A stretch of 64,000 bases of DNA from the NCBI GenBank assembly GCA_910586545.1, contig CAJUIQ010000002.1:39090-103089 (forward strand), written 5' to 3'. Shown here one piece after another: positions 24,611-48,335 of this stretch (its first letter is position 1; each line of letters starts with the position of its first letter). A program made the position numbers and the translations under genes. Source of the stretch: an uncultured Eubacteriales bacterium. Its GTDB lineage: Bacteria; Bacillota; Clostridia; Oscillospirales; CAG-272. A model generated the notes under the pieces. It had not been told where the DNA came from. It saw only the letters and a list, made by a program, of their open reading frames with translations, and did not search any database.

Positions 24611-24686
24611 AGGGGTATAGCTCAGTTGGTAGAGCAGCGGTCTCCAAAACCGCGTGTCCAGAGTTCGAGTCTTTGTGCCCCTGCCA
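24611..24686 (+). tRNA. tRNA-Trp (anticodon CCA)
   Basis: AGGGGUAUAGCUCAGUUGGUAGAGC..GCGGUCUCCAAAACCGC..GUUCGAGUC..UGCCCCUGCCA. Anticodon loop CUCCAAA, discriminator G, CCA encoded. Confidence 0.9.
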
Positions 24687-27737: not shown

Positions 27738-30700
27738 CTATTCATCGTCTATTTTAGATATTCCAATGGTTACTTCCTCCAGAACCTCAAGAAGCATCTT
27801 TACCGTATCCAGAGAAGTAAGCATCGTAATATTGTTCTGAGAGGCGCATCGGCGAATGGCTACGCCGTCTTCGTAATGCACTCCGGAAAGGATCGCACGG
27901 GTACAGATTACATAGCTGACATATCCTGCCCGAATAGATTCCAAAATCTCTTCACTGCCCTCAGAGAGCTTGCGGCGGATACGCGTACGAATGCCCTTCT
28001 CTTTTAAAAAGAGCGCTGTGCCTATTGTGGCTTCAATATTGAAGCCCATATCATAAAACCGGCGTACAAGAGGCAGCGCCTCTTCCTTGTCCTCATCGGC
28101 AAGGGTGACGACCACCGTGCCATAATTTTGCACCTTGATGCCGGAGGCGATCATCGCCTTATACATCGCCCGATGCAGCTTTTTATCATATCCAATGGCT
28201 TCTCCGGTTGACTTCATCTCAGGAGAGAGGTATGCGTCCATCCCGTATAGCTTAGAGAATGAAAACGCGGGAACCTTTACATAATAGCGACTTTTTTCCG
28301 TAGGATAAATTTCCGTGATGCCCTGTTCGGCAAGACTCTTTCCAAGTATAACGAGGGTGGCGATATCGGCCAGGCTGTAGCCGGTTGCCTTTGAAAGAAA
28401 CGGTACCGTTCGGGAAGAGCGGGGATTCACCTCAATAATATAAACATCCTCAAGGTCGTCTACGATAAACTGGATGTTGAACAGCCCCACGATGCCGATT
28501 CCAAGCCCTAACCTTTCGGTATAATCCAAAATGGTGTTTTTTACCTTTTCGGATATGCTGTAGGTGGGGTAGATGCTGATGGAGTCGCCGGAGTGTACGC
28601 CGGTTCTCTCCACAAGTTCCATAATACCGGGAACAAATACCTGCTTACCGTCGCAAATCGCGTCGACTTCCACCTCTTTGCCGCGGATATATTTATCTAC
28701 CAGCACGGGTTTGTCCTCATCGATTTCCACGGCGGTTTTCAAATAATTACGGAGCGCTTCTTCCTTAGCGACAATCTGCATTGCCCGGCCGCCCAGCACA
28801 AAGCTAGGACGAACAAGCACTGGATATCCAATTTCCTCGGCCGCCCGGATGCCCTCCTCTATACTGGTTACGGCGCGGCCCTTCGGTTGGGGAATTTTCA
28901 AAGCGGAAAGCAGCCGCTCAAAGGCGTCTCTATTTTCCGCACGCTCAATCGCATCGCAGTCCGTACCGATAATTTTAACGCCACGCTCTCGCAGAGGCTG
29001 CGCCAGGTTGATTGCCGTCTGACCGCCCAAAGTTGCGATAACTCCTTCTGGCTGCTCCAGCGCGATGACATTCATAACATCTTCCACGCACAGAGGTTCA
29101 AAATACAGCTTATCGGAGCAGGTATAATCGGTGGAAACCGTTTCCGGATTGTTGTTGATAATTATAGCCTCGTAGCCGGCTTCCTTAATGGTCTGCACGG
29201 CGTGGACAGTGGAATAATCAAACTCTACGCCTTGGCCAATCCGGATAGGACCGGAGCCCAGCACAATAATTTTTTTCTTTTCGGATACAATGGACTCGTT
29301 TTCGTCTTCATAGGTAGAGTAGAAGTATGGGATATAACTGTCAAATTCGGAGGCGCAGGTATCAATCATTTTATATACAGGGACGATGCTGTGCACACAC
29401 CGCAAATGAAAGATTTCCGTCTCCGTTTGATTCCAGAGCGCCCCGATCTCCCTATCGGAAAAGCCCATTTGCTTTGCCTCACGCAAGATATGGACATCTC
29501 TGGGATGCTCTTTGAGCACCTGTTCCTTGTCCACAATATTTTTCAGCTTACGGATAAAGAATGGATCTATAGCGGTTACCGCCGCAATATCCTGCGTTTT
29601 GCAGCCAAGCCGCAAAAGTTGGGCGATCGCATAAATACGGTCGTCCGTACCAATTTTAATATAATCCAGCAGCTGCGATTCCGACATATCATCAAACTTG
29701 CCGCTATGCAAATGATACAGCCCAATTTCAAGAGAGCGAATCGCCTTAAGTAAGCTCTCCTCCACTGTCCTGCCAATGCTCATAACCTCGCCGGTAGCCT
29801 TCATCTGCGTAGAAAGCGCGTTGTCCGCCTCTGCGAACTTGTCAAATGGGAAACGAGGCATTTTGCTTACTACATAGTCAAGGGTTGGTTCAAAAGACGC
29901 AGGTGTATTTGCAATCTGAATTTCATCCAGCGTCATTCCAACTCCGATTTTGGCAGACACACGGGCAATAGGGTAGCCGCTGGCCTTAGAAGCCAAGGCG
30001 GAGGAACGAGATACTCTGGGATTGACTTCGATGAGATAGTACTGAAAAGACTGGGGATCAAGGGCAAACTGTACGTTACATCCGCCTTCAATTTTTAATG
30101 CGCGGATCAATTTTAGCGCACTGTCTCTAAGCATTTGGTATTCCTTGTTGGTTAGCGTCTGCGACGGACAAACCACAATGGAATCGCCGGTATGAATCCC
30201 AACAGGATCCAGATTTTCCATGTTACAGATTGTGATGGCAGTGTCATTGCTGTCCCGCATCACTTCGTATTCAATTTCCTTATATCCCTTGATGCTCTTT
30301 TCAATCAACACCTGACCAACGGGAGAGAGAGAAAGCGCATTTTTCATCAGCGGCAGAAGCTCCTCCTCGTTATCGGCAAATCCACCGCCAGTACCGCCAA
30401 GAGTAAACGCGGGACGGAGGACGACAGGATATCCGATTCTTTTCGCAACCGCTGCCCCTTCCTCCATAGAGTTGGCAATATCGGAAGGAAGGACTGGCTC
30501 GCCAAGCGCTTCGCAAAGCGCCTTGAACAGCTCCCTGTCTTCCGCCTGGGCAATACTGCTGCTTTGTGTTCCCAGCAGCTCCACCCGGCATTCGGAAAGG
30601 ATGCCTTTCTTTTCCAAACTCATTGCAAGATTCAGTCCGGTTTGTCCTCCGATTCCGGGCAAAATCGCATCGGGACGCTCAAAGCGTATGATTTTAGCGA

Positions 30701-30920
30701 TATATTCCAGGGTTAGGGGCTCCATATAAACCTTGTCGCAGATAGACGTATCGGTCATAATCGTCGCGGGGTTGGAGTTGCAGAGAACCACCTCATACCC
30801 TTCTTCTTTTAGGGCGAGGCACGCCTGCGTTCCCGCATAGTCGAATTCCGCCGCCTGGCCGATTACGATAGGACCACTGCCGATGACAAGAATTTTTTTA
30901 ATATCCGTTCTTTTGGGCAT
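27738..30920 (-). CDS. carB: carbamoyl-phosphate synthase large subunit
   Basis: 1060 aa. Duplicated ATP-grasp halves and an MGS-like C-terminus, collinear with CarB. Confidence 0.95.
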
Positions 30921-30982
30921 TGCTCTTTCTTTCCTCCATCCGTCGTCATTTTAATAAGATGACAGGCTGTAAAAATATACGC

Positions 30983-32065
30983 TTACCTACAGCTTTCCAT
31001 TTTTTCAATAAAGCGGTCAAACAGATACGCGCTGTCCTGGGGGCCGGGCGCGCTTTCGGGATGATACTGCACGCTGAACACCTTATCCCGGTCGCACTTT
31101 ACACCTTCCACAGTCTGATCCAACAGATTGATATGGGTGGCTGTCAAAGCCGTATTCGCAAGGCTGCCGGCGTCTACCGCATAGGAATGATTTTGCGATG
31201 TAATTTCAATTTTGCCGTTCTCCAGGTTTCGGACAGGATGATTTCCACCCCGGTGTCCGAATTTCAGCTTATAGGTTCTGGCTCCATACGCCAACGAAAT
31301 AATCTGGTGGCCCAGACAAATCCCGAATATCGGATATTTGCCAAGCAGCGTTTTTACCACGGCGATGGTTTCCGGTACATCGGTAGGATCTCCGGGGCCG
31401 TTGGAAATAAAGACTCCGTCGGGATGCAGATTTTCAATGGTGCCGGCAGGCGTGTTCCACGGAACAACCGTGACCTTGCAGCCGCGTTTATGCAAGGAGC
31501 GGACAATATTCATTTTCATACCGCAATCGATAGCCACAACGTGGTATTTCTCCGGCCGCACGCTGGAAATCCACATGGTGTCGCAGCTCACTCGTGAAAC
31601 CGCGTCCTTTGGAATCGCGTTTTCCCTAAGTATCGCAAGCCCCTTCTCTATCGGAGTGGAAGCATTTGTAATCAGAACCTTTCGACTGCCCACGTCACGG
31701 ATGGAACGAGTCAGCTTTCGCGTGTCAATGCCGGATACTCCGGGAATATGATAGGACCGCATTACCTCGGAAAGTGTGGCGGCGCTTCTGAAGTTAGAAG
31801 GCTCATCATTGTATTCCCGAACGATCAGCGCGCCAATAGTAGGCGTTTTTGTCTCATAGTCGTCCTCGGCCATTCCATAGTTTCCAATCAGCGGATAGGT
31901 CATCACAACCGCCTGATATGTATAAGACGGGTCGGAAATGATTTCCTGATAGCCCACCATAGAGGTGTTAAATACAATCTCGCATACCCTGTCCTCTTCA
32001 CTTCCAAAGGAATATCCAAAGTACTCCTGTCCGTCCTCTAAAATAATTTTTCTGTTAAAATCCAT
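30983..32065 (-). CDS. carA: carbamoyl-phosphate synthase small (glutaminase) subunit
   Basis: Start MDFNRKIILEDG (RBS GAGGTGA). GATase class I triad region (GICLGHQ, ..HPE). Confidence 0.92.
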   Translation of the reverse strand: MDFNRKIILEDGQEYFGYSFGSEEDRVCEIVFNTSMVGYQEIISDPSYTYQAVVMTYPLIGNYGMAEDDYETKTPTIGALIVREYNDEPSNFRSAATLSEVMRSYHIPGVSGIDTRKLTRSIRDVGSRKVLITNASTPIEKGLAILRENAIPKDAVSRVSCDTMWISSVRPEKYHVVAIDCGMKMNIVRSLHKRGCKVTVVPWNTPAGTIENLHPDGVFISNGPGDPTDVPETIAVVKTLLGKYPIFGICLGHQIISLAYGARTYKLKFGHRGGNHPVRNLENGKIEITSQNHSYAVDAGSLANTALTATHINLLDQTVEGVKCDRDKVFSVQYHPESAPGPQDSAYLFDRFIEKMESCR

Positions 32066-32075
32066 GCAGTTCACC

Positions 32076-33506
32076 TCATTTTTTAACATCCGACAGACGC
32101 TGTTCAAAACGGTTTTTTCGGGTATCCATCGGAATCTTTGTGGGGTAATTGCCGTCAAAGCAGGCGCTGCAGAAGCCGTGACTGCCGATAAGACAATGCA
32201 GGCTTTCTACCGGAAGATAGCCGAGAGAATCCGCGCCGATAATCTGAGAAATCTGCTCCGTGGTATATTTACAGGCAATCAAATGCTCTTCGGAATCAAT
32301 GTCGGTGCCATAATAGCAGGGATGCAGGAAAGGCGGCGCCGAAATACGCATGTGTATTTCCCTTGCGCCTGCCTGACGCAGAAGATTCACAATGCGCCCG
32401 CTTGTTGTGCCGCGGACAATAGAGTCGTCGATCAATACCACGCGCTTTCCCTTGACGGCGCTCTCAATTGCCGCAAGCTTAATTTTGACCTTATCCAGCC
32501 TGTCTCCGGGAGATATAAATGTTCTGCCGATGTACTTGTTTTTCAATAGGCCAATGCCGTAAGGAATCCCCGACGCCTCGCTGAAACCAAGGGCCGCGTC
32601 CAATCCGGAGTCGGGTACGCCAATCACAATATCCGCTTTGACCGGGTGCGCCTTTGCCAAAATCTTTCCAGCAAAAATCCGTGCGTCGTGAACGGAAACC
32701 CCGTCAATCACAGAATCAGGACGGGCAAAATAAATATACTCAAAGATGCAGAGCTTTTTATCTTTTTTGCCGCAATGCTCTCTTCTGGATTCTACCCCGT
32801 TTTTGCCAAATACCAGAATTTCACCCGGCTCCACATCTCGAATGACTTCGCCGCCAACGGCTCGAATAGCACATCCCTCAGAGGCGACTACATACATGCC
32901 GTCGGGCGTCTTTCCGTAGCAAAGGGGGCGGAAACCATACGGATCTCGTGCGCAAATCAGCTTTTGCGGCGACATCAGCACCAGAGAATAAGCGCCGTCC
33001 AGCGTATGCATAGCCCGACTTAAAGCTTCTTCAATGGAAGGCGCCTGCAGCCGTTCCTTTGTTATGATATACGCAATGGTCTCCGTATCACTGGTAGTAT
33101 GGAAAATGGCGCCGGACAGCTCCAACGCATTTCGAAGCTCTGCCGCATTGGAAAGATTTCCATTGTGAGCCAGCGCCATCCTTCCTTTTTGGTGATTGAC
33201 CTCAATTGGCTGGCAGTTATTGCGGTTTGTGCCCCCGGTAGTGCCGTAGCGCACATGGGCGACCGCCATTGTGCCGGCCGGCAAACGAGACAGGACATCC
33301 TTCGAAAAAACCTCGCTGACAAGTCCCATGTCTTTATGCGACGCAAACACACCGTCGTCATTGACAACAATGCCGCAGCTTTCCTGTCCCCTGTGCTGCA
33401 GCGCATATAATCCATAGTAGGAAATACCTGCGACATCGGCAGGCTCGGCAGCAATTACGCCAAATACGCCGCACTCTTCATGAATTTCCGACTGGGAGTA
33501 CATCAT
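32076..33506 (-). CDS. purF: amidophosphoribosyltransferase
   Basis: Short propeptide followed by the CGVFGV N-terminal nucleophile, plus a PRTase domain (VLIDDSIVRGTT) and C-terminal Cys ligands. Start ambiguous (33506, 33503 or 33530). Confidence 0.92.
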   Translation of the reverse strand: MMYSQSEIHEECGVFGVIAAEPADVAGISYYGLYALQHRGQESCGIVVNDDGVFASHKDMGLVSEVFSKDVLSRLPAGTMAVAHVRYGTTGGTNRNNCQPIEVNHQKGRMALAHNGNLSNAAELRNALELSGAIFHTTSDTETIAYIITKERLQAPSIEEALSRAMHTLDGAYSLVLMSPQKLICARDPYGFRPLCYGKTPDGMYVVASEGCAIRAVGGEVIRDVEPGEILVFGKNGVESRREHCGKKDKKLCIFEYIYFARPDSVIDGVSVHDARIFAGKILAKAHPVKADIVIGVPDSGLDAALGFSEASGIPYGIGLLKNKYIGRTFISPGDRLDKVKIKLAAIESAVKGKRVVLIDDSIVRGTTSGRIVNLLRQAGAREIHMRISAPPFLHPCYYGTDIDSEEHLIACKYTTEQISQIIGADSLGYLPVESLHCLIGSHGFCSACFDGNYPTKIPMDTRKNRFEQRLSDVKK

Positions 33507-33605
33507 CCTCTTACCTCTCTCTATGTACAATGGTAGCCTTTACTGCGGTAAATCGTCTTCGATTTGCGTGCGTGGAACAGACTATATATGTCTTCTGCAC
33601 TTATC

Positions 33606-35141
33606 TTACTCCCACTCCACCGTTGCCGGAGGTTTAGAAGTAATATCATACACCACTCTCGATATACCTGCCACTTCGTTTGTGATCCGGCTGCTTGCCC
33701 TCTCTAAAACCTCATAGGGAAGCCGCGTCCACTCAGCTGTCATAAAATCGTCTGTTGTGACCGCTCTGAGCGCCACTGTACAGCCATATGTTCTAAAATC
33801 GCCCATCACGCCAACACTGCGCAGATCGGTAAGCACGGCAAAATACTGATTGGTCTTGTCTGCTAGCCCGGCAGATGCAATCTCTTCCCGAAAAATTGCG
33901 TCCGCATCCCGCAGCAGTTCCAGCTTCTCCTTTGTAATCGCACCGATTACGCGGACCGCAAGTCCCGGTCCGGGAAAGGGTTGCCGCCATACCAGTTCAT
34001 GGGGAATGCCAAGCTGAATCCCGGCGCGGCGCACTTCATCCTTGAAAAGCTCCCGCAGCGGTTCAACAATTTCTTCAAAAGAAATGACGTCCGGCAGCCC
34101 CCCAACATTGTGATGGCTTTTAATCACCGCTGAATCGCCCTTGCCGCTTTCCACCACGTCAGGATAGATTGTGCCTTGGGCAAGAACGTGAATTTTTCCA
34201 AGCTTCGCCGCCTCATCTTCAAATACACGGATAAATTCTTCACCGATGATTTTACGTTTTGTCTCCGGGTCGCACACACCGGCAAGTTTGTCAAGAAATC
34301 TTTTTTCGGCGTTTACCCGGATGAGGTTCATACCGAATGTACCGCGAAAGGTCTGTTCTACAAAATCTCCCTCACCCTTGCGCAGAAGTCCGTGATCTAC
34401 AAATACGCAGGTCAGGTTCCGACCGATTGCCTTATGGAGCAAAACGGCGGCAACGGAGGAATCCACGCCGCCCGACAGTGCGAGCAGCACTTTTTTGCCG
34501 GCAAGCTCCCTACGATATTTTTCTATGGAGCGTTCCACAAAACTTTCCATTTTCCAATCCGCTTCGCATGCACAGATGTGGAAAAGAAAGTTTGCAAGAA
34601 TCCGCTGTCCGTAAACAGTATGCGTTACTTCCGGGTGGAACTGAACGCCGTACAGCTTTCTGTCTGTATCGCACATGGCCGCACAAGGGCATTTGTCAGT
34701 ATGAGCGATCACTTCAAACCCTTTTGGGGGCTGGCTGATAAAATCCGTATGGCTCATCCAGCAGATGCTTTCACCGGGAATATCCTGAAAGAGGATATTG
34801 TCTGCGGTAAAAACAGTCGTTTTTCCATATTCGCTGGAATTTTCGGCGCTGGAAACCTTACCGCCCGCCATGTACGCCAGCAGCTGGTCCCCGTAGCAGA
34901 TACCCAAAATCGGCACGCCAAGCTGCAGAATATCCGGATCATAATGGGGTGACGACGTATCATAGACACTGTTTGGCCCCCCGGTAAAAATGACGCCTTT
35001 ATATCCGGCGTCTTTTATTTCCTGCACCGTAATCCTGTTGTATGGCTTGATTTCAGCATAAACATTCTGTTCTCGAACCCTGCGGGCTATCAGTTGGTTA
35101 TACTGGCCGCCGAAATCCAAAATAAGTATTTTATCATCCAC
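33606..35141 (-). CDS. guaA: GMP synthase (glutamine-hydrolysing)
   Basis: 511 aa with a GTG start. GATase class I domain plus the PP-loop [11 protein letters not shown]-terminus ..PPATVEWE. Confidence 0.95.
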
Positions 35142-35302
35142 TGTGTTTACCGTCCTTTTATCGTTTGCTTTCGTGCTGGGGGCCGTTTTTATAGATGTAT
35201 CTTCCTGCTCCGGGCCAACAGAAATATAGGCGGGGGCAGTTTATCCGTTTTTCTATATCGGCGTTCTTTGCCTGCATCGTTCCCTCTCTAGCTGACTTCC
35301 GA

Positions 35303-35356
35303 CAAAAAAGGCAATGCTGCTTTAATGCGTATACATTAAAGACACCATTGCCTTTA
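35303..35356 (-). promoter_or_regulatory. guaA leader attenuator: hexaloop hairpin (35337-35356) overlapping an intrinsic terminator
   Basis: RNA UAAAGGC[AAUGGU]GUCUUUA. Alternative fold GGCAAUG..CUUUAAUG-UAUACG-CAUUAAAG..CAUUGCC followed by UUUUUU. Confidence 0.6.
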
Positions 35357-35412
35357 TCTGCTATTGTCTTTTTGCACACGGGAAAATAAAGGCTTTTTGA
35401 AAAGAATTCGCA

Positions 35413-35428
35413 AAGACGCCTTTGCCCT
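35413..35428 (-). promoter_or_regulatory. guaA leader distal hexaloop hairpin
   Basis: RNA AGGGC[AAAGGC]GUCUU, beginning about 10 nt after the -10 box. It can alternatively fold as GCAAAG-GCGU-CUUUGC. Confidence 0.55.
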
Positions 35429-35436
35429 GCTTTAAT

Positions 35437-35465
35437 ACTATACTCTTTTTTGCGTAATTTGTCAA
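35437..35465 (-). promoter_or_regulatory. sigma-A type promoter for guaA
   Basis: On the minus strand: TTGACA (35460-35465), 17 nt spacer, TATAGT (35437-35442). Confidence 0.6.
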
Positions 35466-35538
35466 CTATACGAGAGAAATGTTTTAAAAATATTCGAAAT
35501 TTACCGCCACCCCATACTTCTTTAATAGACGGCTTATT

Positions 35539-37293
35539 CTATTCCACATCTTGCAGAGCGTCGTACCCTTCCTCACCGGTACGCACTTTCACAACATTTT
35601 CTACATCATAAATAAATATTTTACCGTCCCCAATATGTCCTGTGTATAGAACATTTTTTGCTGTTTCAACGACATCGCGGACGGGAACCTTACTCACAAC
35701 GATATCAACTTGAATTTTCGGCAGCAAATTTGCTTCCAGCTGAACGCCGCGATAGTATTCCAGCTTCCCCTTTTGTACGCCACATCCAAGCACATGGGAT
35801 ACCGTCATACCGGTAATTCCAATCTCCATCATGGCAGTTTTAAGCGCTTCAAATCTGGATTCCTTACAGATAATTTCCACCTTGGTAAGCTTGAAAGCGC
35901 CGCTTTCCACTGCGGGAACTCTTTGTACGGGAACGGCTTCGGCAGCAGGAATCTCTCCGGATACGTAGACCGCTTCTTCATATCCATAATTGAGTCCTTC
36001 CACAGCCGGAACAAAATCCGCATACGCGCTGGGCAGACCATGCTCAGTGCTGTCCAACCCCTTGATTTCTTCCTCAGCCGATACACGAAGCCCTATTGTT
36101 TTTTTGATAATAACGAATGTAATGGTCATCATTACAGCAGTCCATGCAAGAATAGCCGTTATACCGATAGCCTGTATTCCAAGAAGTCGGAAGCTTCCCG
36201 TATAGAAAAGACCTCCAAGCTCTGCCGGCGCAGCAGGATTGGCCAAAAGTCCGACTGCAAGTGTGCCCCAAACGCCATTGGCAAGATGCACGCCTACCGC
36301 GCCTACCGGATCATCAATGTGAAGTTTTAAATCAAGCCCCTCCACAACAACAACGACAAGGATACCGGACACAAGACCAATGACGGCGGAACCAAGGGCG
36401 TCCACTGCGTCACAGCCAGCTGTTACGCCTACAAGCCCTGCCAGCGCGCCGTTCAGACACATGGATACGTCAGGCTTGCCGGTTTTGATCCAGGTAAAGA
36501 ACATCGTAGCGCAGGTGGCAACCGCCGGCGCAATGGTTGTAGTTACAAAAATCGATGCAAGAGATCCGCCGTCCCAGGCAGCCGCGCCGTTAAAGCCGTA
36601 CCAGCCAAACCAAAGGATAAAGCAGCCCAATGCGCCAAGGGTAATCGAATGACCAGGAATTGCATTTACCTTTTCCACCTTGCCGGCTTTATTCTTTATA
36701 TATTTTCCAAGCCGCGGGCCTACCATGATGGCGCCGATTAAAGCGGTAATACCACCGACAGAGTGAATCGCCGCTGATCCTGCAAAATCGTGGAATCCAA
36801 GCTGCGCAAGCCAGCCGTTGGAATTCCATACCCAGCCGGCTTCTATGGGATATACAAAAAGCGAGATGACGCCGGAATATATACAATAGGAAACAAACTT
36901 TGTTCTCTCCGCCATAGAACCGGATACAATTGTGGCAGCCGTAGCGCAAAAGACAAGATTAAACACAAACGCAGGAGCCATGCCGCCGTTCAGGAATGCG
37001 CCGAAATCTGTTAAAATATCCAGATTTGGCACACCGATGATTCCAAAGACGTAATCCTCCGCCATCATAAGGCTAAACCCAAGCAGCACAAATACAACCG
37101 TCCCAATACAAAAGTCCATTAAATTTTTCATTATGATGTTGCCTGCGTTCTTCGCTCTGGTAAATCCTGTTTCAACCATTGCAAATCCGGCCTGCATAAA
37201 GAATACCAGCGCGGCGCCGATTAAAAACCAGACGCCGAAAACCTCACTGGTGACAGAATCCTTTACCAATCTGGTGAGTTCTTCTATTGCCAA
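35539..37293 (-). CDS. amt: ammonium transporter fused to a C-terminal PII (GlnB/GlnK) domain
   Basis: 584 aa. About 410 aa of Amt core (FFMQAGFAMVETG..), a linker of about 60 aa, then about 112 aa of PII with a T-loop-like GCGVQKGKLEYYRG. Confidence 0.88.
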   Translation of the reverse strand: MAIEELTRLVKDSVTSEVFGVWFLIGAALVFFMQAGFAMVETGFTRAKNAGNIIMKNLMDFCIGTVVFVLLGFSLMMAEDYVFGIIGVPNLDILTDFGAFLNGGMAPAFVFNLVFCATAATIVSGSMAERTKFVSYCIYSGVISLFVYPIEAGWVWNSNGWLAQLGFHDFAGSAAIHSVGGITALIGAIMVGPRLGKYIKNKAGKVEKVNAIPGHSITLGALGCFILWFGWYGFNGAAAWDGGSLASIFVTTTIAPAVATCATMFFTWIKTGKPDVSMCLNGALAGLVGVTAGCDAVDALGSAVIGLVSGILVVVVVEGLDLKLHIDDPVGAVGVHLANGVWGTLAVGLLANPAAPAELGGLFYTGSFRLLGIQAIGITAILAWTAVMMTITFVIIKKTIGLRVSAEEEIKGLDSTEHGLPSAYADFVPAVEGLNYGYEEAVYVSGEIPAAEAVPVQRVPAVESGAFKLTKVEIICKESRFEALKTAMMEIGITGMTVSHVLGCGVQKGKLEYYRGVQLEANLLPKIQVDIVVSKVPVRDVVETAKNVLYTGHIGDGKIFIYDVENVVKVRTGEEGYDALQDVE

Positions 37294-37311
37294 AATAGCT
37301 CCCCTTCTTTC

Positions 37312-39408
37312 TCATTTTACGCTGAACAGCAAGTCAGCATATGTCGGATAGGGCCACCAACTCTTTGCGGTAATCGTTTCCGCCTCATCACAGGCAACGC
37401 GCAGTTCCCCCATCTTTACCAGTACGCTGTCGCGAATCATAGCGGACTGTGCAAAGATATCCTCGCACTTCTGCAAAAACAGCAGAGCGTCTTCCAGTTC
37501 CTCTACCTTGCCCGCGATTCTGTCGGTCAGGGCGGATAATTTCTTCACGACGCCAAGCTCATAGCTGCAGGCAAGACTTGCATCCAGCGCTTTCTTTGCT
37601 GCCGCGCTTTTTGCAACATCTGCCGCATATCCTTCCACGGCAGGCGCAATTTGCGTCTTAGCCATATCCGCCATGGTACTTGCTTCGATTACAACAGTCT
37701 TGCAGTAGTTTTCTAACATAATATCGCATCTGGAACGCAGTTCCGCTTCGGAAAACACCCCGTGCCCCGTCAGCATATCCACGTTTTTCTTGTCCAGCAG
37801 ATGCGGCATACAATCGGGCGTGGTACGATAGTTGAGAAGTCCGCGTTTTTCTGTAGCTTCTCTGATCCAGCTATCGTCATAACCGTTGCCGTTAAAAATA
37901 ATATGCTTATGATCGCGAATCGTTTTCTGAATCATTCCGTGAAGGGCGGTTTCAAAATCTTTCGCCCCTTCCAGACGGTCAGCATAAATTTTGAGGCTTT
38001 CGGCAACCGCGCTGTTCAGCATAATGTTTGCACAGGCGATACTGTTGGAGGATCCAAGCATACGAAATTCAAATTTGTTTCCGGTAAACGCAAAGGGAGA
38101 CGTTCTGTTGCGGTCGGTGGTATCTCGGTTAAACTTTGGCAAAACATCCACGCCAAGCTTCATCTGTGTTTTTTTAGCGCCTTCGTACGGGGTATCGTTT
38201 TCAATCGCCTGGAGCACCGCATTCAACTCGTCTCCAAGGAAAATGGAAACAACGGCAGGCGGCGCCTCGTTGGCGCCCAACCGGTGATCGTTGCCGGCAG
38301 TAGCTACGGAGATACGAAGCAAATCCTGATAATCGTCCACAGCTTTGATTACCGCGCAGAGGAACAAGAGAAACTGCGCATTTTCATAGGGCGTCTCTCC
38401 AGGGGAAAGCAGATTCTGGCCTGCATCGGTAGCAATCGACCAGTTATTGTGCTTGCCGCTGCCGTTTACTCCAGCGAAAGGCTTTTCGTGAAGCAAACAG
38501 ACAAGACCGTGCTTTGCAGCGATTTTCTGCATAATTTCCATTGTGAGCTGGTTGTGATCGGTTGCAATATTGGTCGTCGTATAGATGGGCGCAAGCTCAT
38601 GCTGCGCGGGAGCAACCTCGTTATGTTCTGTTTTCGCCAGGATGCCTAGCTTCCAGAGTTCATGGTTCAACTCTTCCATAAAAGCTGCGACTCTAGGCTT
38701 GATCACGCCGAAATAGTGGTCGTCCATTTCCTGTCCCTTGGGCGGTTTTGCACCAAATAATGTGCGACCTGTGAACCGCAGGTCTGGCCGCTGATCATAC
38801 ATCTCCTGCGTCACAAGAAAGTATTCCTGTTCGGGACCTACGGAAGAACGGACGCATTTTGCAGTATTATTGCCAAATAGGCGCAGGATACGGAGCGCCT
38901 GCTTATTAAGCGCGCCCATGGAGCGCAGCAGAGGTGTTTTCTTATCCAGCGCTTCTCCGCCGTAAGAACAGAACGCCGTGGGAATGCACAAGGTCCGTCC
39001 CTTGATAAACGCATAGGAGGTAGGATCCCATGCGGTATAGCCTCTCGCCTCAAAAGTTGCGCGCAGACCACCGCTGGGGAAAGACGACGCATCCGGCTCG
39101 CCTTTAATCAGCTCCTTGCCAGAAAACTCCATAATTACGCCGCCGTCCGGAGAAGGAGAGATAAAACTGTCATGCTTTTCCGCCGTGATTCCGGTAAGAG
39201 GCTGGAACCAATGGGTATAATGGGTGGCCCCCTTAGAAATCGCCCAATCCTTCATTGCGGCTGCCACCGCATTTGCGACGCCGATATCCAGTGCGGTACC
39301 CTCGTCAATCGTCTTTTTTAAAGAGCCATATACCTTAGCGCTCAGCGTTGCTTTCATGACTCTGTCGTCGAACACCAAACTTCCAAAATATTCCGATACA
39401 GTTTCCAT
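37312..39408 (-). CDS. glnN: glutamine synthetase type III
   Basis: 698 aa. The N-terminus ..[15 protein letters not shown].. and the length are typical of GSIII. Only 18 nt separate it from amt. Confidence 0.9.
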
Positions 39409-39428
39409 GATCCTATCTCCTTTTTTCT

Positions 39429-39486
39429 AAGTAATAAAGGCAAAAACGTCTCTCTGCCGATCAGCACGAAAGACGCCTTTGCCTTT
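39429..39486 (-). promoter_or_regulatory. glnN leader: hexaloop hairpin (39469-39486) embedded in a 16 bp terminator-like hairpin
   Basis: RNA AAAGGC[AAAGGC]GUCUUU. Alternative fold AAAGGCAAAGGCGUCU..19 nt..AGACGUUUUUGCCUUU followed by AUUACUU (weak U-tract). Confidence 0.55.
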
Positions 39487-39503
39487 GGTTTACAATTTAT
39501 TTT

Positions 39504-40851
<1,348 letters not shown>

Positions 40852-40860
40852 TTATTTGCG

Positions 40861-40920
40861 GAAAAGAAAAAGACGCTTACATGGCGGATCCTCCCACCAT
40901 GAAAGACGTCTTTGCCTTCC
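40861..40920 (-). promoter_or_regulatory. gdhA leader proximal attenuator: hexaloop hairpin (40901-40920) overlapping a terminator
   Basis: RNA GGAAGGC[AAAGAC]GUCUUUC. Alternative fold AAAGACG..CAUGGUGG-GAGGAU-CCGCCAUG..CGUCUUU followed by UUCUUUU. Confidence 0.6.
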
Positions 40921-40950
40921 CACATATATTATAGTATTATTTAGGATTTA

Positions 40951-40999
40951 CAAAAAAGAAAAGGGCGTCCTTGTATCCTCTCCAAGACGCCCTTGCCTT
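40951..40999 (-). promoter_or_regulatory. gdhA leader distal attenuator: hexaloop hairpin (40984-40999) overlapping a strong terminator
   Basis: RNA AAGGC[AAGGGC]GUCUU. Alternative fold AAGGGCGUCUUG-GAGAGGAUA-CAAGGACGCCCUU followed by UUCUUUUUUG. Confidence 0.6.
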
Positions 41000-41009
41000 T
41001 ACGCACTTT

Positions 41010-41038
41010 ATCTTACACCTGCAGGGAAGATTTGTCAA
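41010..41038 (-). promoter_or_regulatory. candidate promoter for gdhA, divergent from the glt promoter
   Basis: On the minus strand: TTGACA (41033-41038), 17 nt spacer, TAAGAT (41010-41015). The spacer contains TGCAGGT. Confidence 0.45.
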
Positions 41039-41097
41039 GCCTTTTTGCAATATTTTTTTCAAAACCTGCAAAAAAAATGAAATCTTTTGTTTTGCCC

Positions 41098-41126
41098 TTG
41101 ACAAAATGCAGGTACAGATGTATAAT
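41098..41126 (+). promoter_or_regulatory. sigma-A type promoter for the glt-like/glnA/ANTAR operon
   Basis: TTGACA (41098-41103), 17 nt spacer containing TGCAGGT, TATAAT (41121-41126). Confidence 0.65.
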
Positions 41127-41134
41127 ACTTGCAA

Positions 41135-41198
41135 ATGGGCAAAGGAGTTCATTTCCGTGCAGACATGTATGCGCGGGAATGGCTCCTTTTGTTTTTTA
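41135..41198 (+). promoter_or_regulatory. glt operon leader attenuator: hexaloop hairpin (41135-41152) overlapping a strong terminator
   Basis: RNA AUGGGC[AAAGGA]GUUCAU. Alternative fold AAAGGAG-UU-CAUUUCCGUGC-AGACAUGUAU-GCGCGGGAAUG-G-CUCCUUU followed by UGUUUUUU. Confidence 0.65.
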
Positions 41199-41224: not shown

Positions 41225-42319
41225 ATGAAATTAGAAGGCCAAGTACGAATCCCCTCCGGATGTGCGATTGCCGCTGTTATTTCTAAAGAGGGAAATAAAA
41301 TGTCCGGCGAACGAGTCGCCAGCGCCATGAAGCCGATGCATGACCGTTCCAACGGACTGGGAGGCGGGTTTGCCGGATATGGCATCTACCCCGCGTATAA
41401 AGATTTTTACGCGCTGCATATGTTTTTTGACGAGCGCTCCACTCGGAAAAACTGTGAAGTATTTCTAAAAGAACGATTTGAAATTGTAAAATCGGAAATT
41501 ATCCCCACCAGGAAAATCCCGGCAATTACCGACGAACCGATTATATGGAGATATTTCGTAGCCCCGCTGCAATCTGTTCTTGCCAATTTACAGTTGGATG
41601 AAAAGGAATTTGTAGCGCGCACCGTTATGAAAATTAACACGGAAATGAAGGGGGCCTATGTTTTCTCCAGCGGAAAAAACATGGGAACCTTTAAGGCGGT
41701 TGGGTTTCCCGAAGACGTAGCGCTTTTTTATAAATTAGAAGAATACGCAGGCTACTCCTGGACGGCCCATGGCCGTTACCCCACCAACACGCCCGGATGG
41801 TGGGGCGGCGCCCATCCCTTTACGCTGCTGGATTACTCTATCGTACATAACGGGGAAATTTCATCTTACGACGCCAACCGTCGTTTTATAGAAATGTTTG
41901 GTTACAAATGTACCCTGCAAACCGACACCGAGGTCATCACCTATATAATGGATTATCTTGTGCGGGTTCAGGGACTGACCCTTGATGAAGCGGCAAGCGT
42001 GATCGCCGCCCCCTTTTGGAGTACCATCGAAGATAAAACAGACATAGAGGATAAAGAAAAGCATATCTATCTGCGCACCCTCTTTCCCAGCTTGCTGATA
42101 ACAGGACCGTTTTCCATCGTTCTTGGATTTAACGGCGGTCTGATGGCGCTTAACGACCGTCTCAAGCTCCGTTCCATGGTAGTTGGAGAAAAGGACGATA
42201 AAGTATTTATCGCCAGCGAGGAGGCGGCAATCCGTATGATGGAGCCGGACGCTACTAATATTTGGGCTCCCGCCGGCGGCGAGCCGGTTATAGTCAAAGT
42301 AAAGGATGGTGCGTACTGA
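41225..42319 (+). CDS. class II glutamine amidotransferase domain protein (GltB domain 1-like / GlxB-like)
   Basis: 364 aa. Ntn-type Cys in ..IPSGCAIAAVISKEG. Collinear with the amidotransferase domain of the glutamate synthase large subunit. Its stop overlaps the next start (TGATG). Confidence 0.8.
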   Translation: MKLEGQVRIPSGCAIAAVISKEGNKMSGERVASAMKPMHDRSNGLGGGFAGYGIYPAYKDFYALHMFFDERSTRKNCEVFLKERFEIVKSEIIPTRKIPAITDEPIIWRYFVAPLQSVLANLQLDEKEFVARTVMKINTEMKGAYVFSSGKNMGTFKAVGFPEDVALFYKLEEYAGYSWTAHGRYPTNTPGWWGGAHPFTLLDYSIVHNGEISSYDANRRFIEMFGYKCTLQTDTEVITYIMDYLVRVQGLTLDEAASVIAAPFWSTIEDKTDIEDKEKHIYLRTLFPSLLITGPFSIVLGFNGGLMALNDRLKLRSMVVGEKDDKVFIASEEAAIRMMEPDATNIWAPAGGEPVIVKVKDGAY

Positions 42320-43824
42320 TGCGTGCAGAATTTGTATATCCGGAATTTGAAGTCATCCGCAATGCCGACCGCTGTATTGAATGCCGGGTTTGTGAGCGGC
42401 AATGTGCCAACGGGGTACATGCATTGCATCCTGAAAAGGGCGTTATGATCAGCGATGAGAGAGCCTGTGTAAACTGCCAGCGTTGTGTGGCGCTCTGCCC
42501 CACCAGAGCGCTGAAAATTGTAAAAAGCGACTGCGCCCTCCGAGAAAATGCCAACTGGTCAAGCGATACGATTCAGGAAATCTACAAACAGGCCGACAGC
42601 GGCGGCGTGCTCCTTTCCTCTATGGGCAATCCGAAGCCTATGCCCGTGTACTGGGATAAAATTCTCATCAACGCCTCCCAAGTAACCAACCCGCCCATTG
42701 ATCCCCTGCGGGAGCCTATGGAAACCCGTGTGTCTCTCGGCAAAAAGCCACATCAGGTTCAGCGGGACGAAACCGGCAGGCTAAAATGCCAGCTTCCTCC
42801 CCAGCTTACCCTTTCCATGCCCATCCTGTTTTCGGCAATGAGCTATGGTTCCATCAGTTATAACGCGCATGCCGCGCTCGCCCGTGCCGCCACCGAGCTT
42901 GGCATCCTATATAACACCGGCGAGGGAGGACTGCATGAAGATTTCTATTGCTACGGTGAAAACACGATTGTGCAGGTTGCGTCGGGCCGATTTGGCGTGC
43001 ATGAGGACTATTTGAAGGCCGGCGCAGCCATTGAAATTAAAATGGGACAGGGCGCAAAGCCGGGGATCGGCGGACATCTGCCCGGTACAAAAATTGTGGG
43101 CGACGTCTCCCGTACCCGTATGATTCCCGAAGGCTCAGACGCAATTTCCCCGGCGCCCCACCACGACATATATTCCATTGAGGATCTGCGGCAGCTTGTT
43201 TTTTCCTTGAAAGAGACCACTGAATATAAAAAGCCGGTAATTGTAAAGGTGGCAGCCGTACATAATATTGCCGCAATTGCCAGCGGTATTGCCAGAAGCG
43301 GCGCGGACATCATCGCCATCGATGGATTCCGCGGCGGCACCGGCGCGGCGCCTACCAGAATTCGGGACAATGTGGGCATCCCCATTGAGCTTGCTCTGGC
43401 AGCAGTTGATCAGCGGCTTCGGGACGAGGGAATCCGCAATGATATATCTCTTGTAGTAGGCGGTTCTATTCGCAGCGCGTCAGACGTGATCAAGGCCATT
43501 GCCCTAGGCGCGGACGCTTGTTATATTGCGACGGCAGCGCTTCTTGCTCTTGGTTGCCACCTCTGTCGCACCTGTCAAAGCGGCAAATGCAACTGGGGAA
43601 TCGCAACCCAGCGTCCTGAACTGGTAAAACGTCTGGATCCCGATATAGGGAGTCAGCGTCTTATCAATCTGATGCACGCATGGCAGCACGAAATCAAAGA
43701 ACTAATGGGCGGCATGGGAATCAATTCCATTGAATCCCTGCGAGGCAATCGTCTGATGCTGCGCGGTATTGGTATGACAGATAAAGAACTGGAAATTTTG
43801 GGCATCTCCCATGCGGGAGAATGA
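42319..43824 (+). CDS. glutamate synthase FMN-domain protein with an N-terminal 2x[4Fe-4S] ferredoxin-like domain
   Basis: Start MRAEFVYP. Two CxxCxxCxxxCP-type clusters (CIECRVCERQC, CVNCQRCVALCP), then a GltB domain 2-like TIM barrel (..GEGG..KMGQGAKPGIGGHLPG..). Confidence 0.85.
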   Translation: MRAEFVYPEFEVIRNADRCIECRVCERQCANGVHALHPEKGVMISDERACVNCQRCVALCPTRALKIVKSDCALRENANWSSDTIQEIYKQADSGGVLLSSMGNPKPMPVYWDKILINASQVTNPPIDPLREPMETRVSLGKKPHQVQRDETGRLKCQLPPQLTLSMPILFSAMSYGSISYNAHAALARAATELGILYNTGEGGLHEDFYCYGENTIVQVASGRFGVHEDYLKAGAAIEIKMGQGAKPGIGGHLPGTKIVGDVSRTRMIPEGSDAISPAPHHDIYSIEDLRQLVFSLKETTEYKKPVIVKVAAVHNIAAIASGIARSGADIIAIDGFRGGTGAAPTRIRDNVGIPIELALAAVDQRLRDEGIRNDISLVVGGSIRSASDVIKAIALGADACYIATAALLALGCHLCRTCQSGKCNWGIATQRPELVKRLDPDIGSQRLINLMHAWQHEIKELMGGMGINSIESLRGNRLMLRGIGMTDKELEILGISHAGE

Positions 43825-43920
43825 CGCTGAAAAATACCTATTAGAGATGAGAAAATAGCCTTTGTGCCGTTTTTTCTCTCTAAATCTATAGAAATAAGGT
43901 TGGAGGTGCGGTATAATATT

Positions 43921-44640
43921 ATGGTAATTGATGCTGGCTGCCTTGATTACAAGGCTTTGAACGATACGCTTCGCAAGGCAGAGGAAAATTGCAAAATCGT
44001 GGGTTGCTGCGGACAGCGCTTTATCGCGGCGGGTATGTCTCAAAAAAATATTGCGATTCAGGGAATCCCCGGAAACGCCCTTGGCGCATACTTGAACGGG
44101 GCCTGCATTACCGTAAACGGAAGCGTGCAGGATGCTGTTGGAGACACAATGAACGCAGGCAAAATTATTGTGCACGGCAATATAGGAGACGCGGCAGGAT
44201 ATGCAATGCGGGGTGGCAGAATTTTTGTTAAAGGAAATGCCGGATACCGTGCCGGGATCCACATGAAAGCATACAACGAAAAAATGCCGGTTATGGTGAT
44301 TGGCGGCACGGCCGGAAGTTTTCTTGGCGAATATCAGGCAGGCGGCGTAATCGTTGTTCTTGGACTTACAGCGCCGGATAAAAAAATTGTAGGGTATTTC
44401 CCCTGTACTGGAATGCATGGCGGAAAAATGTTTCTGCGTTCCGACTGCAGCGACGTTAAATTTCCAGATCAGGTTACGGCGCGTGCCGCCGGAGATGCAG
44501 ATCTGGAAGAACTCAAAACATATATTACCGAATATTGCGATTTGTTCGGATATGATACGCAGGCCGTGCTGGACGCGCCCTTTACCGTAGTTACCCCTGA
44601 CAGCAGGAACCCCTATAAACAGATGTATGTAGCCAATTAA
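43921..44640 (+). CDS. GXGXG-motif protein (GltB C-terminal domain-like / GlxC-like)
   Basis: Start MVIDAG (RBS GGAGGTG). Repeated beta-helix motif (..GNIGDAAGYAMRGGRIFVKGNAGYRAG..). Confidence 0.8.
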   Translation: MVIDAGCLDYKALNDTLRKAEENCKIVGCCGQRFIAAGMSQKNIAIQGIPGNALGAYLNGACITVNGSVQDAVGDTMNAGKIIVHGNIGDAAGYAMRGGRIFVKGNAGYRAGIHMKAYNEKMPVMVIGGTAGSFLGEYQAGGVIVVLGLTAPDKKIVGYFPCTGMHGGKMFLRSDCSDVKFPDQVTARAAGDADLEELKTYITEYCDLFGYDTQAVLDAPFTVVTPDSRNPYKQMYVAN

Positions 44641-46530: not shown

Positions 46531-46559
46531 TTGACAAATATTTGCGGTGATGGTATAAT
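46531..46559 (+). promoter_or_regulatory. sigma-A type promoter for the T-box leader
   Basis: TTGACA (46531-46536), 17 nt spacer, TATAAT (46554-46559). Confidence 0.65.
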
Positions 46560-46875
46560 GTATAAAATTGAATATCATAAACCGTTGATGCGGAGATAAC
46601 GGCAATGATGCCTTTACAGAGAGCCTGCGACGCTGAAAGTCAGGTAGGAAACAAGTTGTCAAATGGGCCGCTTAGGGTGCAGTCAAATGTGATTTCACAG
46701 AGTATTCTGCAACGTGTTGGCATACGTCAGTTGCCGAGGATATACAGGTATCCTGCTAAGAGCACGGGGTTGTCTCGTGAATGCAAGGTGGCACCGCGGA
46801 TCGTGGTACATGAAAAACAATGTATCGTATTCGTCCTTGACAAAGCGTATTTTGTCGAGGGCATTTTTATTTTTA
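46560..46875 (+). promoter_or_regulatory. T-box riboswitch leader (probably Trp-specific)
   Basis: AG-box AGAGAG (about 46617). T-box sequence AAUGCAAGGUGGCACCGCG (46780-46798). Terminator CCUUGACAAA-GCGUAU-UUUGUCGAGG plus a U-run (46835-46875). Candidate specifier UGG at 46664-46666. The downstream gene is trpB. Confidence 0.8.
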
Positions 46876-46966: not shown

Positions 46967-47117
46967 CCTACTTCTTTGGCATAGCGAAATTTTATGGATA
47001 CTTGTCGAAATGGAGATTATTATGCTGGTACAATCCAAACGATGGCGGCGCTCACATAAAATCGCCCCATAAAAAACGAACAAAACCAACTATTTTACTA
47101 TTTTGGAGGATGCAAAA

Positions 47118-48335
47118 ATGCAATTCAATCATATTGATTTTGATACCTACTTTAAAAACTATCCCGATGCAGACGGCTTTTTTGGCAAATACGGCGGATC
47201 CTATATCCCGCAGGAGCTCCAGACCGCCATGGATGAAATCACGGAAGCTTACTATACCATCTGCAAATCCAGCAAATTTGTAAGCGAACTGCGCCGGATC
47301 CGCAAGGAATTTCAGGGCAGACCCACGCCGGTTTCCTATTTGGAGAGACTGTCCGGCAAGCTTGGCAATGTACAACTTTACGTGAAACGTGAGGATTTGA
47401 ACCATACCGGCGCACACAAGCTGAACCACTGTATGGGAGAAGCCCTTCTCGCCAAGTATATGGGCAAGAAAAAGGTAATTGCCGAGACGGGCGCCGGGCA
47501 GCACGGCGTCGCCCTTGCAACTGCCGCCGCCTACTTCGGACTTTCATGCGACATTTATATGGGTGCTGTGGATATTAAAAAGCAGGCCCCCAATGTAGCT
47601 AGAATGAAAATTCTCGGCGCCAATGTAATTGAGGTGACCGACGGTCTGCAAACGCTGAAAGAAGCTGTAGACGCTGCGTTCATGGCATATTGTAAAGAAT
47701 ATAAAGACGCCATTTACTGCATTGGCTCCGTAGTAGGCCCCCATCCGTTCCCTATGATGGTGCGGGACTTCCAAAGTATTGTAGGAATAGAAGCAAGAGA
47801 ACAGTTTATGGAAATGACCGGCGAGCTGCCGGATGCCGTTGTCGCCTGCGTAGGCGGCGGCTCCAATGCGATGGGCATTTTTTCCGGATTTCTCAATGAT
47901 CCTGTAGATATTTACGGCGTTGAGCCTTTGGGAAGAGGCCCCGCCCTCGGGGATCATGCTGCAAGTCTTGCATACGGATCAGAAGGCGTTATGCATGGAT
48001 TCAACAGTATCATGCTTAAAGATGCAAACGGCGGCCCTGCTCCGGTTTATTCTGTAGCCAGTGGTCTGGATTATCCTTCATCCGGCCCTGAGCACGCATT
48101 TCTGCACGACCTGGGCAGAGTGAAGTATGACGTTATATCTGACGACGAAACCATTGACGCATTCTTCGAGCTTTCCAGAATGGAAGGCATTATCCCAGCT
48201 ATTGAAAGTTCCCACGCCGTCGCCTACGGAATAAAACTGGCGAAGCAGATGAACAAAGGCTCCATTCTGATTAATCTCTCCGGAAGAGGAGATAAGGATA
48301 TGGATTATATTATTGAAAAATATGGCATCAGATAA
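47118..48335 (+). CDS. trpB: tryptophan synthase beta chain (stand-alone)
   Basis: Start MQFNHID (RBS GGAGG). [15 protein letters not shown] and the PLP-Lys context HTGAHKLNH. No trpA or other trp genes lie next to it. Confidence 0.9.

Follow-up and report, generated by a model that had tools for sequence, protein, structure and literature searches.

A hexaloop hairpin overlapping terminators of nitrogen genes is the probable target of a co-encoded ANTAR protein in an uncultured Eubacteriales bacterium and its relatives

Introduction

Most targets of ANTAR antiterminators control nitrogen genes, including loci of Firmicutes in which glutamine synthetase (GS), ANTAR and glutamate synthase (GOGAT) genes stand together (Ramesh 2012, PMC3369931). 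Regulons of this kind that span several operons have been predicted in Desulfotomaculum, Desulforudis, Carboxydothermus, Alkaliphilus, C. thermocellum and other Firmicutes (Ramesh 2012 Table S2, PMC3369931), with targets that overlap terminators ahead of genes for GS, glutamate synthase, PII and ammonium transporters and ahead of the ANTAR gene itself. In C. saccharobutylicum and C. acetobutylicum, the ANTAR protein NitR, encoded after glnA, has been reported to cause antitermination at GS/GOGAT genes when nitrogen is limiting (Stutz 2007, as summarised in PMC6316151 and PMC4676874). The canonical ANTAR substrate consists of two hexaloop hairpins, P1 and P2, which lie 5-12 nt apart in eut (Ramesh 2012, PMC3369931). 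The ANTAR dimer contacts one hexaloop at once, and the minimal binding site has been redefined as a single hexaloop, with the function of natural single-hexaloop sites left open (Walshe 2022, PMC8934654). Here we describe a 64,000-nucleotide stretch of contig CAJUIQ010000002.1 from an uncultured Eubacteriales bacterium (hereafter the window), in which six small RNA hairpins, all before nitrogen-related genes, share one hexaloop motif. We propose, with a rough probability of 0.8, that these units are cis-acting antiterminator hairpins of a protein-dependent nitrogen attenuation regulon whose antiterminator is the ANTAR protein co-encoded with them.

Results

Six hairpin units share one motif

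Re-reading the letters at each coordinate confirmed the six units of a preliminary description of this DNA (Table 1), and all six have the hexaloop that it had claimed, in which the first base is A and the fourth is G. The stems are 5-8 bp long, the loop reads A-A-N-G-R-N, and the top of the stem is a C-G pair followed by a G.U pair. A covariance model of 20 nt and 7 bp, built from the six units and scanned over both strands of the window (model R1), scored them at 24.6-28.5 bits, and the runner-up match reached 14.1 bits. That match, at 46597, was rejected as a seventh unit; it lies inside Stem I of a T-box leader. The 14-nt core AAGACGYCYTTGCC is present in four copies, the number previously counted, against 0.00 expected from dinucleotide shuffles. 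A looser pattern covering the top of the stem and the loop, GGCAANGNNGTC, has six exact matches, five of which are units and one of which is a stemless match at 44919 in the GS-like gene, so the specificity belongs to the full hairpin and not to the loop alone.

The small hairpin and the terminator are mutually exclusive folds

In five of the six leaders, the hexaloop and the 3' half of the hairpin also form the 5' arm of a terminator, and the two folds are mutually exclusive. Folding thereby bore out the terminator overlap that had been claimed for five units: five strong intrinsic terminators were found, the guaA-distal unit is the exception, and the U-run of the glnN terminator is weak, as had been remarked. 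The small hairpin is predicted at -1.9 to -5.9 kcal/mol, compared with -20 to -37 kcal/mol for the overlapping terminators of these five leaders.

These energies bear on the idea that the leaders contain a metabolite-sensing riboswitch (for glutamine, for example) or a factor-independent attenuator. The nitrogen-related genes would suit such an element, as would the tandem attenuators described below, which are found in some riboswitches. However, the conserved part is just a 20-nt hairpin, the remaining leader is variable terminator sequence, and an Rfam 15 covariance scan of the leaders returned no family at the gathering score or even at E <= 5, glutamine riboswitch and T-box included. The hairpin is also 15-30 kcal/mol weaker than the terminator, which makes a compensating ligand pocket implausible, and we consider this explanation extremely unlikely.

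Three of the transcription units begin at consensus-like promoters (Table 1), and no promoter was detected for the glnN unit in the gdhA-glnN intergenic region. The 20-nt units of the glt, gdhA-distal and guaA-distal leaders start 7-9 nt past the -10 box, which leaves no room for a P1 hairpin. The figure of 11-13 nt given previously needs correction, since the distances measured from the hexamer ends at 41126, 41010 and 35437 are 9 (glt), 11 (gdhA distal) and 9 (guaA distal). The promoter-to-hairpin distance of the glt leader is kept in orthologous leaders.

The unit is conserved at orthologous nitrogen-gene leaders

A search with the ANTAR protein gave 6613 homologues at E <= 1e-10, and cultivable bacteria that carry the system include Merdimmobilis hominis, Allobaculum stercoricanis and [Eubacterium] hominis. 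A protein-first set of 80 ANTAR loci from different species (62-76% identity; 1.1 Mb; Lachnospiraceae, Oscillospiraceae, Christensenellales, Erysipelotrichales and others), scanned with R1, contained 141 units. The preliminary description had proposed a covariance-model scan of related genomes; in this set, picked by its ANTAR gene, the scan places the unit at orthologous nitrogen-gene leaders and beside the ANTAR orthologue. Units fall into two classes. Class A (consensus aAAAGGC[AANGGC]GUCUUUg, loop in brackets) stands ahead of glnN (56 units), gdhA (12), amtB-PII (4), purC and pyrG. Class B (consensus AAUGAGC[AAAGGC]GUUCAUU) stands ahead of the glt operon (21) or a GS-like/ANTAR gene pair (11), directly after a TTGACA-17-TATAAT promoter; this sequence is the glt-leader form in more than 30 orthologous loci, and the ANTAR gene lies downstream of a class B unit in most loci. 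Counting from the genes instead, we found a unit upstream of 43/44 glnN genes, 7/8 gdhA genes and 26/33 gltB first genes in these loci, and upstream of none of the 153 operon-internal genes (FMN, GXGXG and ANTAR genes). The orientation of the unit is always that of the downstream gene, and in 118 of the 141 cases the unit shares bases with a terminator-like hairpin that is followed by a U-rich tail.

These counts divide the earlier proposal of a nitrogen antitermination regulon that reaches guaA. Its nitrogen part is supported, with the unit before glnN, gdhA, glt and amtB in relatives, and each of the computational checks suggested along with it gave a favourable result. By contrast, none of the five other guaA genes in related loci has a unit, and the guaA link is thus lineage-specific; relatives place purA, purC, pyrG or nadE, not guaA, behind the unit. 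The purC leaders of two related loci (L007 and L029) contain a sequence almost identical to the guaA proximal unit. In a close relative (88% ANTAR identity), purA takes the place of amtB behind glnN and has tandem units of its own.

Alignment of 90 distinct homologous units revealed that A1 is kept in 89 and G4 in all 90, that A2 and the closing C-G pair are invariant, and that the G.U pair is conserved (85 and 89 of 90 sequences). Pairing is retained in 91% of the alignment cells, five of the seven pairs have changed on both sides, and every shuffle and slid register scores lower. Further variants that preserve pairing include GAAGC/GUUUC and AAGAGC/GUUCUU. For 28 orthologous glt leaders, RNAalifold predicted the terminator with 19 pairs, 11 of them with compensatory changes, and its 5' arm begins at the first loop base of the small hairpin in this consensus. 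The last two bases of the loop (positions 5 and 6) change in concert with the 3' arm of the terminator in these leaders, and A1, A2 and G4 stay constant. This points to a requirement other than terminator pairing, for which recognition by a protein is the simplest explanation.

The same data bear on whether the unit could be a DNA operator, on which a nitrogen transcription factor acts as repressor or roadblock and the RNA hairpin is incidental. Three units do sit at about +1 to +20 of strong promoters, and their sequence is an imperfect inverted repeat. Nevertheless, the conserved G.U would be a mismatch in duplex DNA and in the antisense strand, which suggests that the sense RNA is the functional form. 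Units are present, too, 60-130 nt past promoters and in the promoter-less gdhA-glnN spacer, their orientation tracks the downstream gene, they are interlocked with a covarying terminator, and no DNA-binding regulator is encoded in the locus. A DNA operator is therefore very unlikely.

A scan that starts from the RNA leads back to nitrogen genes

We also searched metagenome contigs with the exact pattern AAAGGCAANGGCGTCTTT, in which the ANTAR gene played no part in the choice of sequences. This RNA-first scan gave 131 matches in 120 metagenome stretches, and 78 of these lie ahead of glnN (54), gdhA (8), purC (8), amtB (4), pyrG (3) or purF (1). Among the matches whose downstream gene was unassigned, a sample included further nitrogen-related genes: the Na+/glutamate symporter gene gltS, purA, NAD (nicotinamide adenine dinucleotide) synthase (twice), a class IV aminotransferase and a CobQ-type amidotransferase. 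A minority had no nitrogen context (ATP synthase b, a leucine-rich-repeat protein, a histidine kinase), which is consistent with chance for 17 specified bases in a very large collection. Because the matches fall mainly at nitrogen genes, the motif is no general mark of terminators.

Matches on the strand opposite to true units (window 39435-39454; related loci L018 at 8574 and L081 at 3418) were rejected as extra units; they correspond to the terminator 3' arm read in reverse complement. Such mirror-image matches, and the embedding of the units in terminators, might be expected if the motif were a generic repeat, or belonged to a family of terminators, and had no specific role in regulation. 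Against this stand the presence of only six copies in 64 kb, all in nitrogen-gene leaders, the difference between operon-internal genes and glnN in the related loci, and the gene content of the RNA-first matches, which consists mainly of nitrogen and amidotransferase genes. Together with the gap between 24.6 and 14.1 bits under R1, that content agrees with the earlier claim that the small hairpin, and not a generic terminator, is the conserved part. We regard a generic repeat as the least credible of the explanations weighed here.

Units occur in tandem but not as P1/P2 pairs

Inspection by eye and by script for a missed P1/P2 partner in the window yielded only two chance-level candidates, GGG[AAUGGC]UCC inside the glt terminator and GUCUUUC[AUGGUG]GGAGGAU overlapping the gdhA-proximal unit, and both were rejected. 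Many leaders do contain two units. In the related loci the spacing of these tandem units is 59-127 nt, with a median near 80, and either unit has a terminator of its own. Many genomes keep this arrangement ahead of glnN, gdhA and purC; in the window, the gdhA and guaA leaders carry two units each. From their sequence, tandem units read as two complete attenuators in series.

The ANTAR protein has a pseudo-receiver and follows a GS paralogue

The ANTAR gene that had been reported at the end of the glt operon does encode an ANTAR domain, which scores far above the cut-off of 27.3 bits for Pfam PF03861 (Table 1). In the Protein Data Bank, the closest solved structures are Rv1626, AmiR, EutV and NasR. 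Met172 of EutV is the "plug" of the hexaloop. By alignment, the equivalents of EutV Met172, Lys147, Lys149 and Glu160 are retained, and Tyr164, which stacks on G4, is replaced by His, as in AmiR. In 80/80 orthologues, Asn replaces the phospho-acceptor Asp and Ser-Ala replaces the acidic pocket; the Response_reg score falls below the Pfam cut-off, and no histidine kinase is encoded in the locus. The acceptor Asp, pocket and kinase that define a phosphorylated response regulator of the EutV/Rv1626 type are thus all missing, and the receiver is a pseudo-receiver like those of AmiR and NasT. Because this domain cannot take phosphate, the regulator is most likely controlled by a partner protein, in the manner of AmiC-AmiR and NasS-NasT.

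A candidate partner is encoded beside it. Of the 80 ANTAR loci, 75 contain the GS-like gene, and in every locus whose layout was read it immediately precedes the ANTAR gene. Its product is a homologue of type I-alpha GS (342 bits to the Methanosarcina/Bacillus-type GS, under the NCBIfam GlnA cut-off) that is about 40 residues shorter at the C-terminus and retains the catalytic motifs. By analogy with known partner proteins, we tentatively suggest that it may be a glutamine or nitrogen sensor that gates the antiterminator.

Assignment of the hairpin to the ANTAR protein

Judged from sequence, the hairpins are very probably targets of the ANTAR protein encoded next door. Several observations weigh against this assignment or against the circuit we build on it. 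EutV needs both hairpins in vivo, and antitermination was lost when the linker was extended by 20 nt (Ramesh 2012, PMC3369931; Walshe 2022, PMC8934654). The preliminary description had already cautioned that each terminator has one unit and no closely spaced pair, and this caution is justified: among 99 homologous units, a partner hairpin with an A1/G4 hexaloop within 35 nt is present upstream in 4% and downstream in 10%, compared with a background of 9.2%. The guaA-distal unit lacks a convincing terminator. The related loci were picked for their ANTAR gene, so the co-occurrence of unit and ANTAR gene is partly built in, and the metagenome contigs are mostly too short to show it. Most double changes in the stem separate class A from class B, so independent covariation events are few. 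The catalytic motifs of the GS-like protein mean that it may simply be an enzyme, and control of gdhA with the same sign as GS/GOGAT would be physiologically unusual.

Two of these points, the missing P1 partner and the locus set that favours co-occurrence, would also fit another trans-acting factor binding the hairpin (an RNA-binding protein, the GS-like protein, a PII-type protein or a small RNA), with the ANTAR gene merely in the same locus. Yet the unit agrees with experimentally validated ANTAR P2 hairpins in its loop and closing pair, a domain scan recognised no other RNA-binding regulator in the locus, the ANTAR gene is downstream of a class B unit in most loci, and published ANTAR regulons share the gene content. 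We consider a different factor unlikely, and the co-encoded ANTAR protein remains our preferred antiterminator.

Genes of the locus and further observations

Table 1. Features of the hairpin-bearing region, in window coordinates. Loop letters are in square brackets; MFE, minimum free energy.
Feature	Position	Strand	Details
glt class B unit	41134..41153	+	AAUGGGC[AAAGGA]GUUCAUU; 25.0 bits; 5' end of glt leader
gdhA distal class A unit	40982..41001	-	UAAAGGC[AAGGGC]GUCUUGG; 25.9 bits
gdhA proximal class A unit	40901..40920	-	GGAAGGC[AAAGAC]GUCUUUC; 26.4 bits
glnN class A unit	39468..39487	-	CAAAGGC[AAAGGC]GUCUUUC; 28.5 bits; in gdhA-glnN spacer
guaA distal class A unit	35411..35430	-	GCAGGGC[AAAGGC]GUCUUUG; 24.6 bits
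guaA proximal class A unit	35337..35356	-	UAAAGGC[AAUGGU]GUCUUUA; 28.0 bits
Promoter of glt-GS-like-ANTAR operon	41098..41126	+	TTGACA-17-TATAAT, sigma-70-type; 12/12 consensus bases
Promoter of gdhA-glnN-amtB transcription unit	41010..41038	-	TTGACA-17-TAAGAT; consensus match
Promoter of guaA	35437..35465	-	TTGACA-17-TATAGT; consensus match
glt leader terminator	41137..41197	+	MFE -36.6 kcal/mol, z = -5.7; U-run at end
First gdhA terminator	40946..41000	-	AAGGGCGUCUU / AAGGACGCCCUU and U-run; -20.5 kcal/mol
Second gdhA terminator	40855..40919	-	U-rich tail; -27.6 kcal/mol
glnN terminator	39430..39486	-	near-perfect 19-bp stem, weak U-run; -31.6 to -34 kcal/mol, z = -6.5
guaA proximal terminator	35300..35355	-	U6 run; -25.9 kcal/mol
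guaA distal weak terminator-like alternative	35380-35423	-	AAAGGC/GCCUUU then AUUUU, or GCAAAG/CUUUGC
Split glutamate synthase, three genes (GATase_2; Fer4-dicluster+FMN; GXGXG)	41225..44640	+	domain matches; behind class B leader
Truncated type-I glutamine-synthetase paralogue, 403 aa	44664..45875	+	directly upstream of ANTAR gene, 35-nt gap
Pseudo-receiver + ANTAR regulator, 194 aa	45911..46495	+	last glt-operon gene; Pfam ANTAR 60.7 bits
gdhA (frameshifted), glnN (GS type III), amtB-PII fusion	35539..40839	-	domain matches
guaA (GMP synthase)	33606..35141	-	domain match; two units in leader
purF-like amidophosphoribosyltransferase, carA, carB	27738-33530	-	domain matches; after guaA

No gltD-like small subunit of glutamate synthase was recognised among the operon genes, and the three-protein layout is kept in related loci. 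On the other strand, gdhA is split into two frames by one additional G in a G7 run (40455-40461; region 40444-40469, minus strand), inside a conserved motif. The gene is intact, at 444 aa, in the close relative with 88% ANTAR identity. Three explanations are considered for the frameshift: a sequencing error in the homopolymer, a pseudogene of recent origin or phase variation at this site. The products of guaA, the purF-like gene, carA and carB (27738-35141, minus strand) are all glutamine-dependent amidotransferases; no terminator was found in the guaA-purF gap, and the four genes may therefore form one operon under the attenuators.

Downstream of the ANTAR gene, a T-box leader at 46576-46841 (plus strand) is the sole Rfam match in the hairpin region, with 73.2 bits and E = 1e-14; the gathering score is 93, so a default Rfam scan overlooks it. 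A perfect TTGACA-17-TATAAT promoter with a TG extension lies ahead of it (promoter-leader region 46531-46870, plus strand), it ends in a terminator at 46833-46862, and the next gene (47103-48335) encodes a TrpB-like pyridoxal phosphate enzyme. The window's only Rfam matches at the gathering score are two tRNA genes, 15456-15528 (minus strand) and 24611-24683 (plus strand).

Three kinds of unusual unit were seen among the related loci. In the first (L018 8574-8623, L021 3133-3182 and L026 8562-8611), a palindromic terminator with a full-scoring unit on each strand lies between divergent glnN and GS-like genes, and transcription could be attenuated either way from this single hairpin region; the contigs, recorded as Bacteroidales, contain the clostridial system and are probably mis-binned. 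In the second (L061 1094-3723, L056 1094 and L027 2084), a class-B-like unit, UUGAAGC[AAAGGC]GUUUCAU or GAAGAGC[AAAGGC]GUUCUUA, stands with its own terminator before a gene for an 862-aa protein. The sole recognised domain of this candidate regulon member is PPDK_N (phosphoenolpyruvate-utilising, ATP-binding). In the third (L030 6321-8454), a 575-aa transposase-like open reading frame lies between two identical units at 6321 and 8435, which looks like an insertion sequence in the glnN leader that has duplicated the motif.

Discussion

We propose that the terminator is the default fold of each leader, so that transcription would stop before gdhA, glnN-amtB, the glt operon or guaA. Antitermination would begin when the ANTAR dimer seizes the 5'-proximal hexaloop hairpin as it emerges from the polymerase; for three units, the predicted transcription start is a few nucleotides away. 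Capture would have to occur within the 25-45 nt of transcription ahead of the terminator 3' arm and would block strand exchange, and a hairpin held until the polymerase clears the U-run would allow read-through. Tandem attenuators, as before gdhA and guaA, could multiply this effect and sharpen the response. Because the regulator gene is the last of a target operon and lies with the putative sensor behind the class B unit, the circuit would be positively autoregulated. The GS paralogue would report glutamine or nitrogen status and free the antiterminator under nitrogen limitation, a direction of response that we infer from the summarised reports on NitR.

A bolder version of this proposal, which we consider doubtful, holds that a single hexaloop with no P1 is enough for ANTAR antitermination in gut Clostridia and that the truncated GS serves as glutamine sensor, the whole forming a master nitrogen regulon made steep by tandem attenuators. 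It would cover glnN, gdhA, the split GOGAT and amtB-PII together with the consumers of glutamine or aspartate nitrogen guaA, purA, purC, purF, pyrG and nadE.

Very common among the Clostridia of gut and rumen, the regulator family has orthologues throughout Lachnospiraceae, Oscillospiraceae and Christensenellales. Its large, clean set of single, terminator-overlapping ANTAR-type hairpins offers a natural test of the two-hairpin model derived from EutV. A GS paralogue that controls a pseudo-receiver ANTAR protein would, if true, be a new type of partner for this family. The 20-nt motif also makes it simple to predict the nitrogen regulon of these Clostridia and its connections to nucleotide and NAD synthesis, which are absent from the ANTAR papers and tables searched.

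Comparison with known systems

In EutV/EutW of the Enterococcus faecalis eut locus (PMC3369931; PMC8934654), as here, an A1/G4 hexaloop closed by a C-G pair lies over the terminator 5' arm, the regulator combines receiver, coiled-coil and ANTAR domains, and one locus holds several target leaders. The loop and closing pair of our units match those of validated P2 ("antitermination") hairpins: eutA UUAAGC[AAAGGC]GCUUAA, eutP GGC[AAAGGA]GCC and nasF GGAU[AAAGGC]GUCC. The eut P2 sequences, such as eutA AAGC[AAAGGC]GCUU, are almost the same as ours. Measured against the motif of Ramesh 2012, the units have the A1/G4 hexaloop, the covarying stem and the terminator overlap, and they lack the dual hairpin. 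The eut targets are paired hairpins that are both needed in vivo, whereas the window units are single and autonomous. EutV is activated through phosphorylation by EutW, whereas the window regulator has no acceptor Asp and no kinase nearby, and eut serves ethanolamine use, in contrast to the central nitrogen assimilation genes of the window.

AmiC-AmiR of the P. aeruginosa amidase operon and NasS-NasT or NasR of nitrate assimilation likewise antiterminate nitrogen-related operons through ANTAR proteins. AmiR and NasT have pseudo-receivers run by a ligand-binding partner encoded adjacent to them, the scheme we propose here, and our protein resembles AmiR in the His at the G4-stacking position. 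AmiC and NasS are similar to periplasmic binding proteins, whereas the candidate partner here is a GS paralogue; systems of the AmiR/NasT type control one operon, whereas here the regulon would comprise several operons with single-hairpin leaders. For a GS paralogue as partner, GS of B. subtilis provides an analogy as a trigger enzyme that reports glutamine status to TnrA and GlnR by direct contact. TnrA and GlnR are DNA-binding factors of the MerR type, and contact between the GS-like and ANTAR proteins is proposed purely by analogy.

In our searches on NitR targets and on ANTAR with glnN, no paper describing the motif was found, which is no proof of absence. The same proviso applies to four features not found described in the literature searched: the autonomous single-hexaloop unit, serial attenuators, type III glnN and gdhA as targets, and the recurrent guaA, purA, purC, purF, pyrG and nadE. 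The tables of Ramesh 2012 list no GMP synthase, CTP synthase or glutamate dehydrogenase, and no tandem complete attenuators are described there; the matches come from a dual-hairpin model of 45-70 nt, whereas the window units are single.

Of the systems compared, NitR as summarised in PMC6316151 and PMC4676874 shares the gene order of the window: the ANTAR gene directly follows a GS gene, and the units precede the glt and glnN operons, corresponding to its GS/GOGAT targets. Set against those summaries, the main GS target here is the type III glnN, the regulon adds gdhA, amtB-PII and guaA, and the adjacent GS is a truncated protein of 403 aa. Because ANTAR nitrogen regulons have already been published (NitR; Ramesh 2012), our interpretation, which the computational evidence supports, is not new in kind; the present system differs from the published ones in its single-hexaloop unit with no P1, its tandem attenuators, and its nucleotide and NAD amidotransferase targets.

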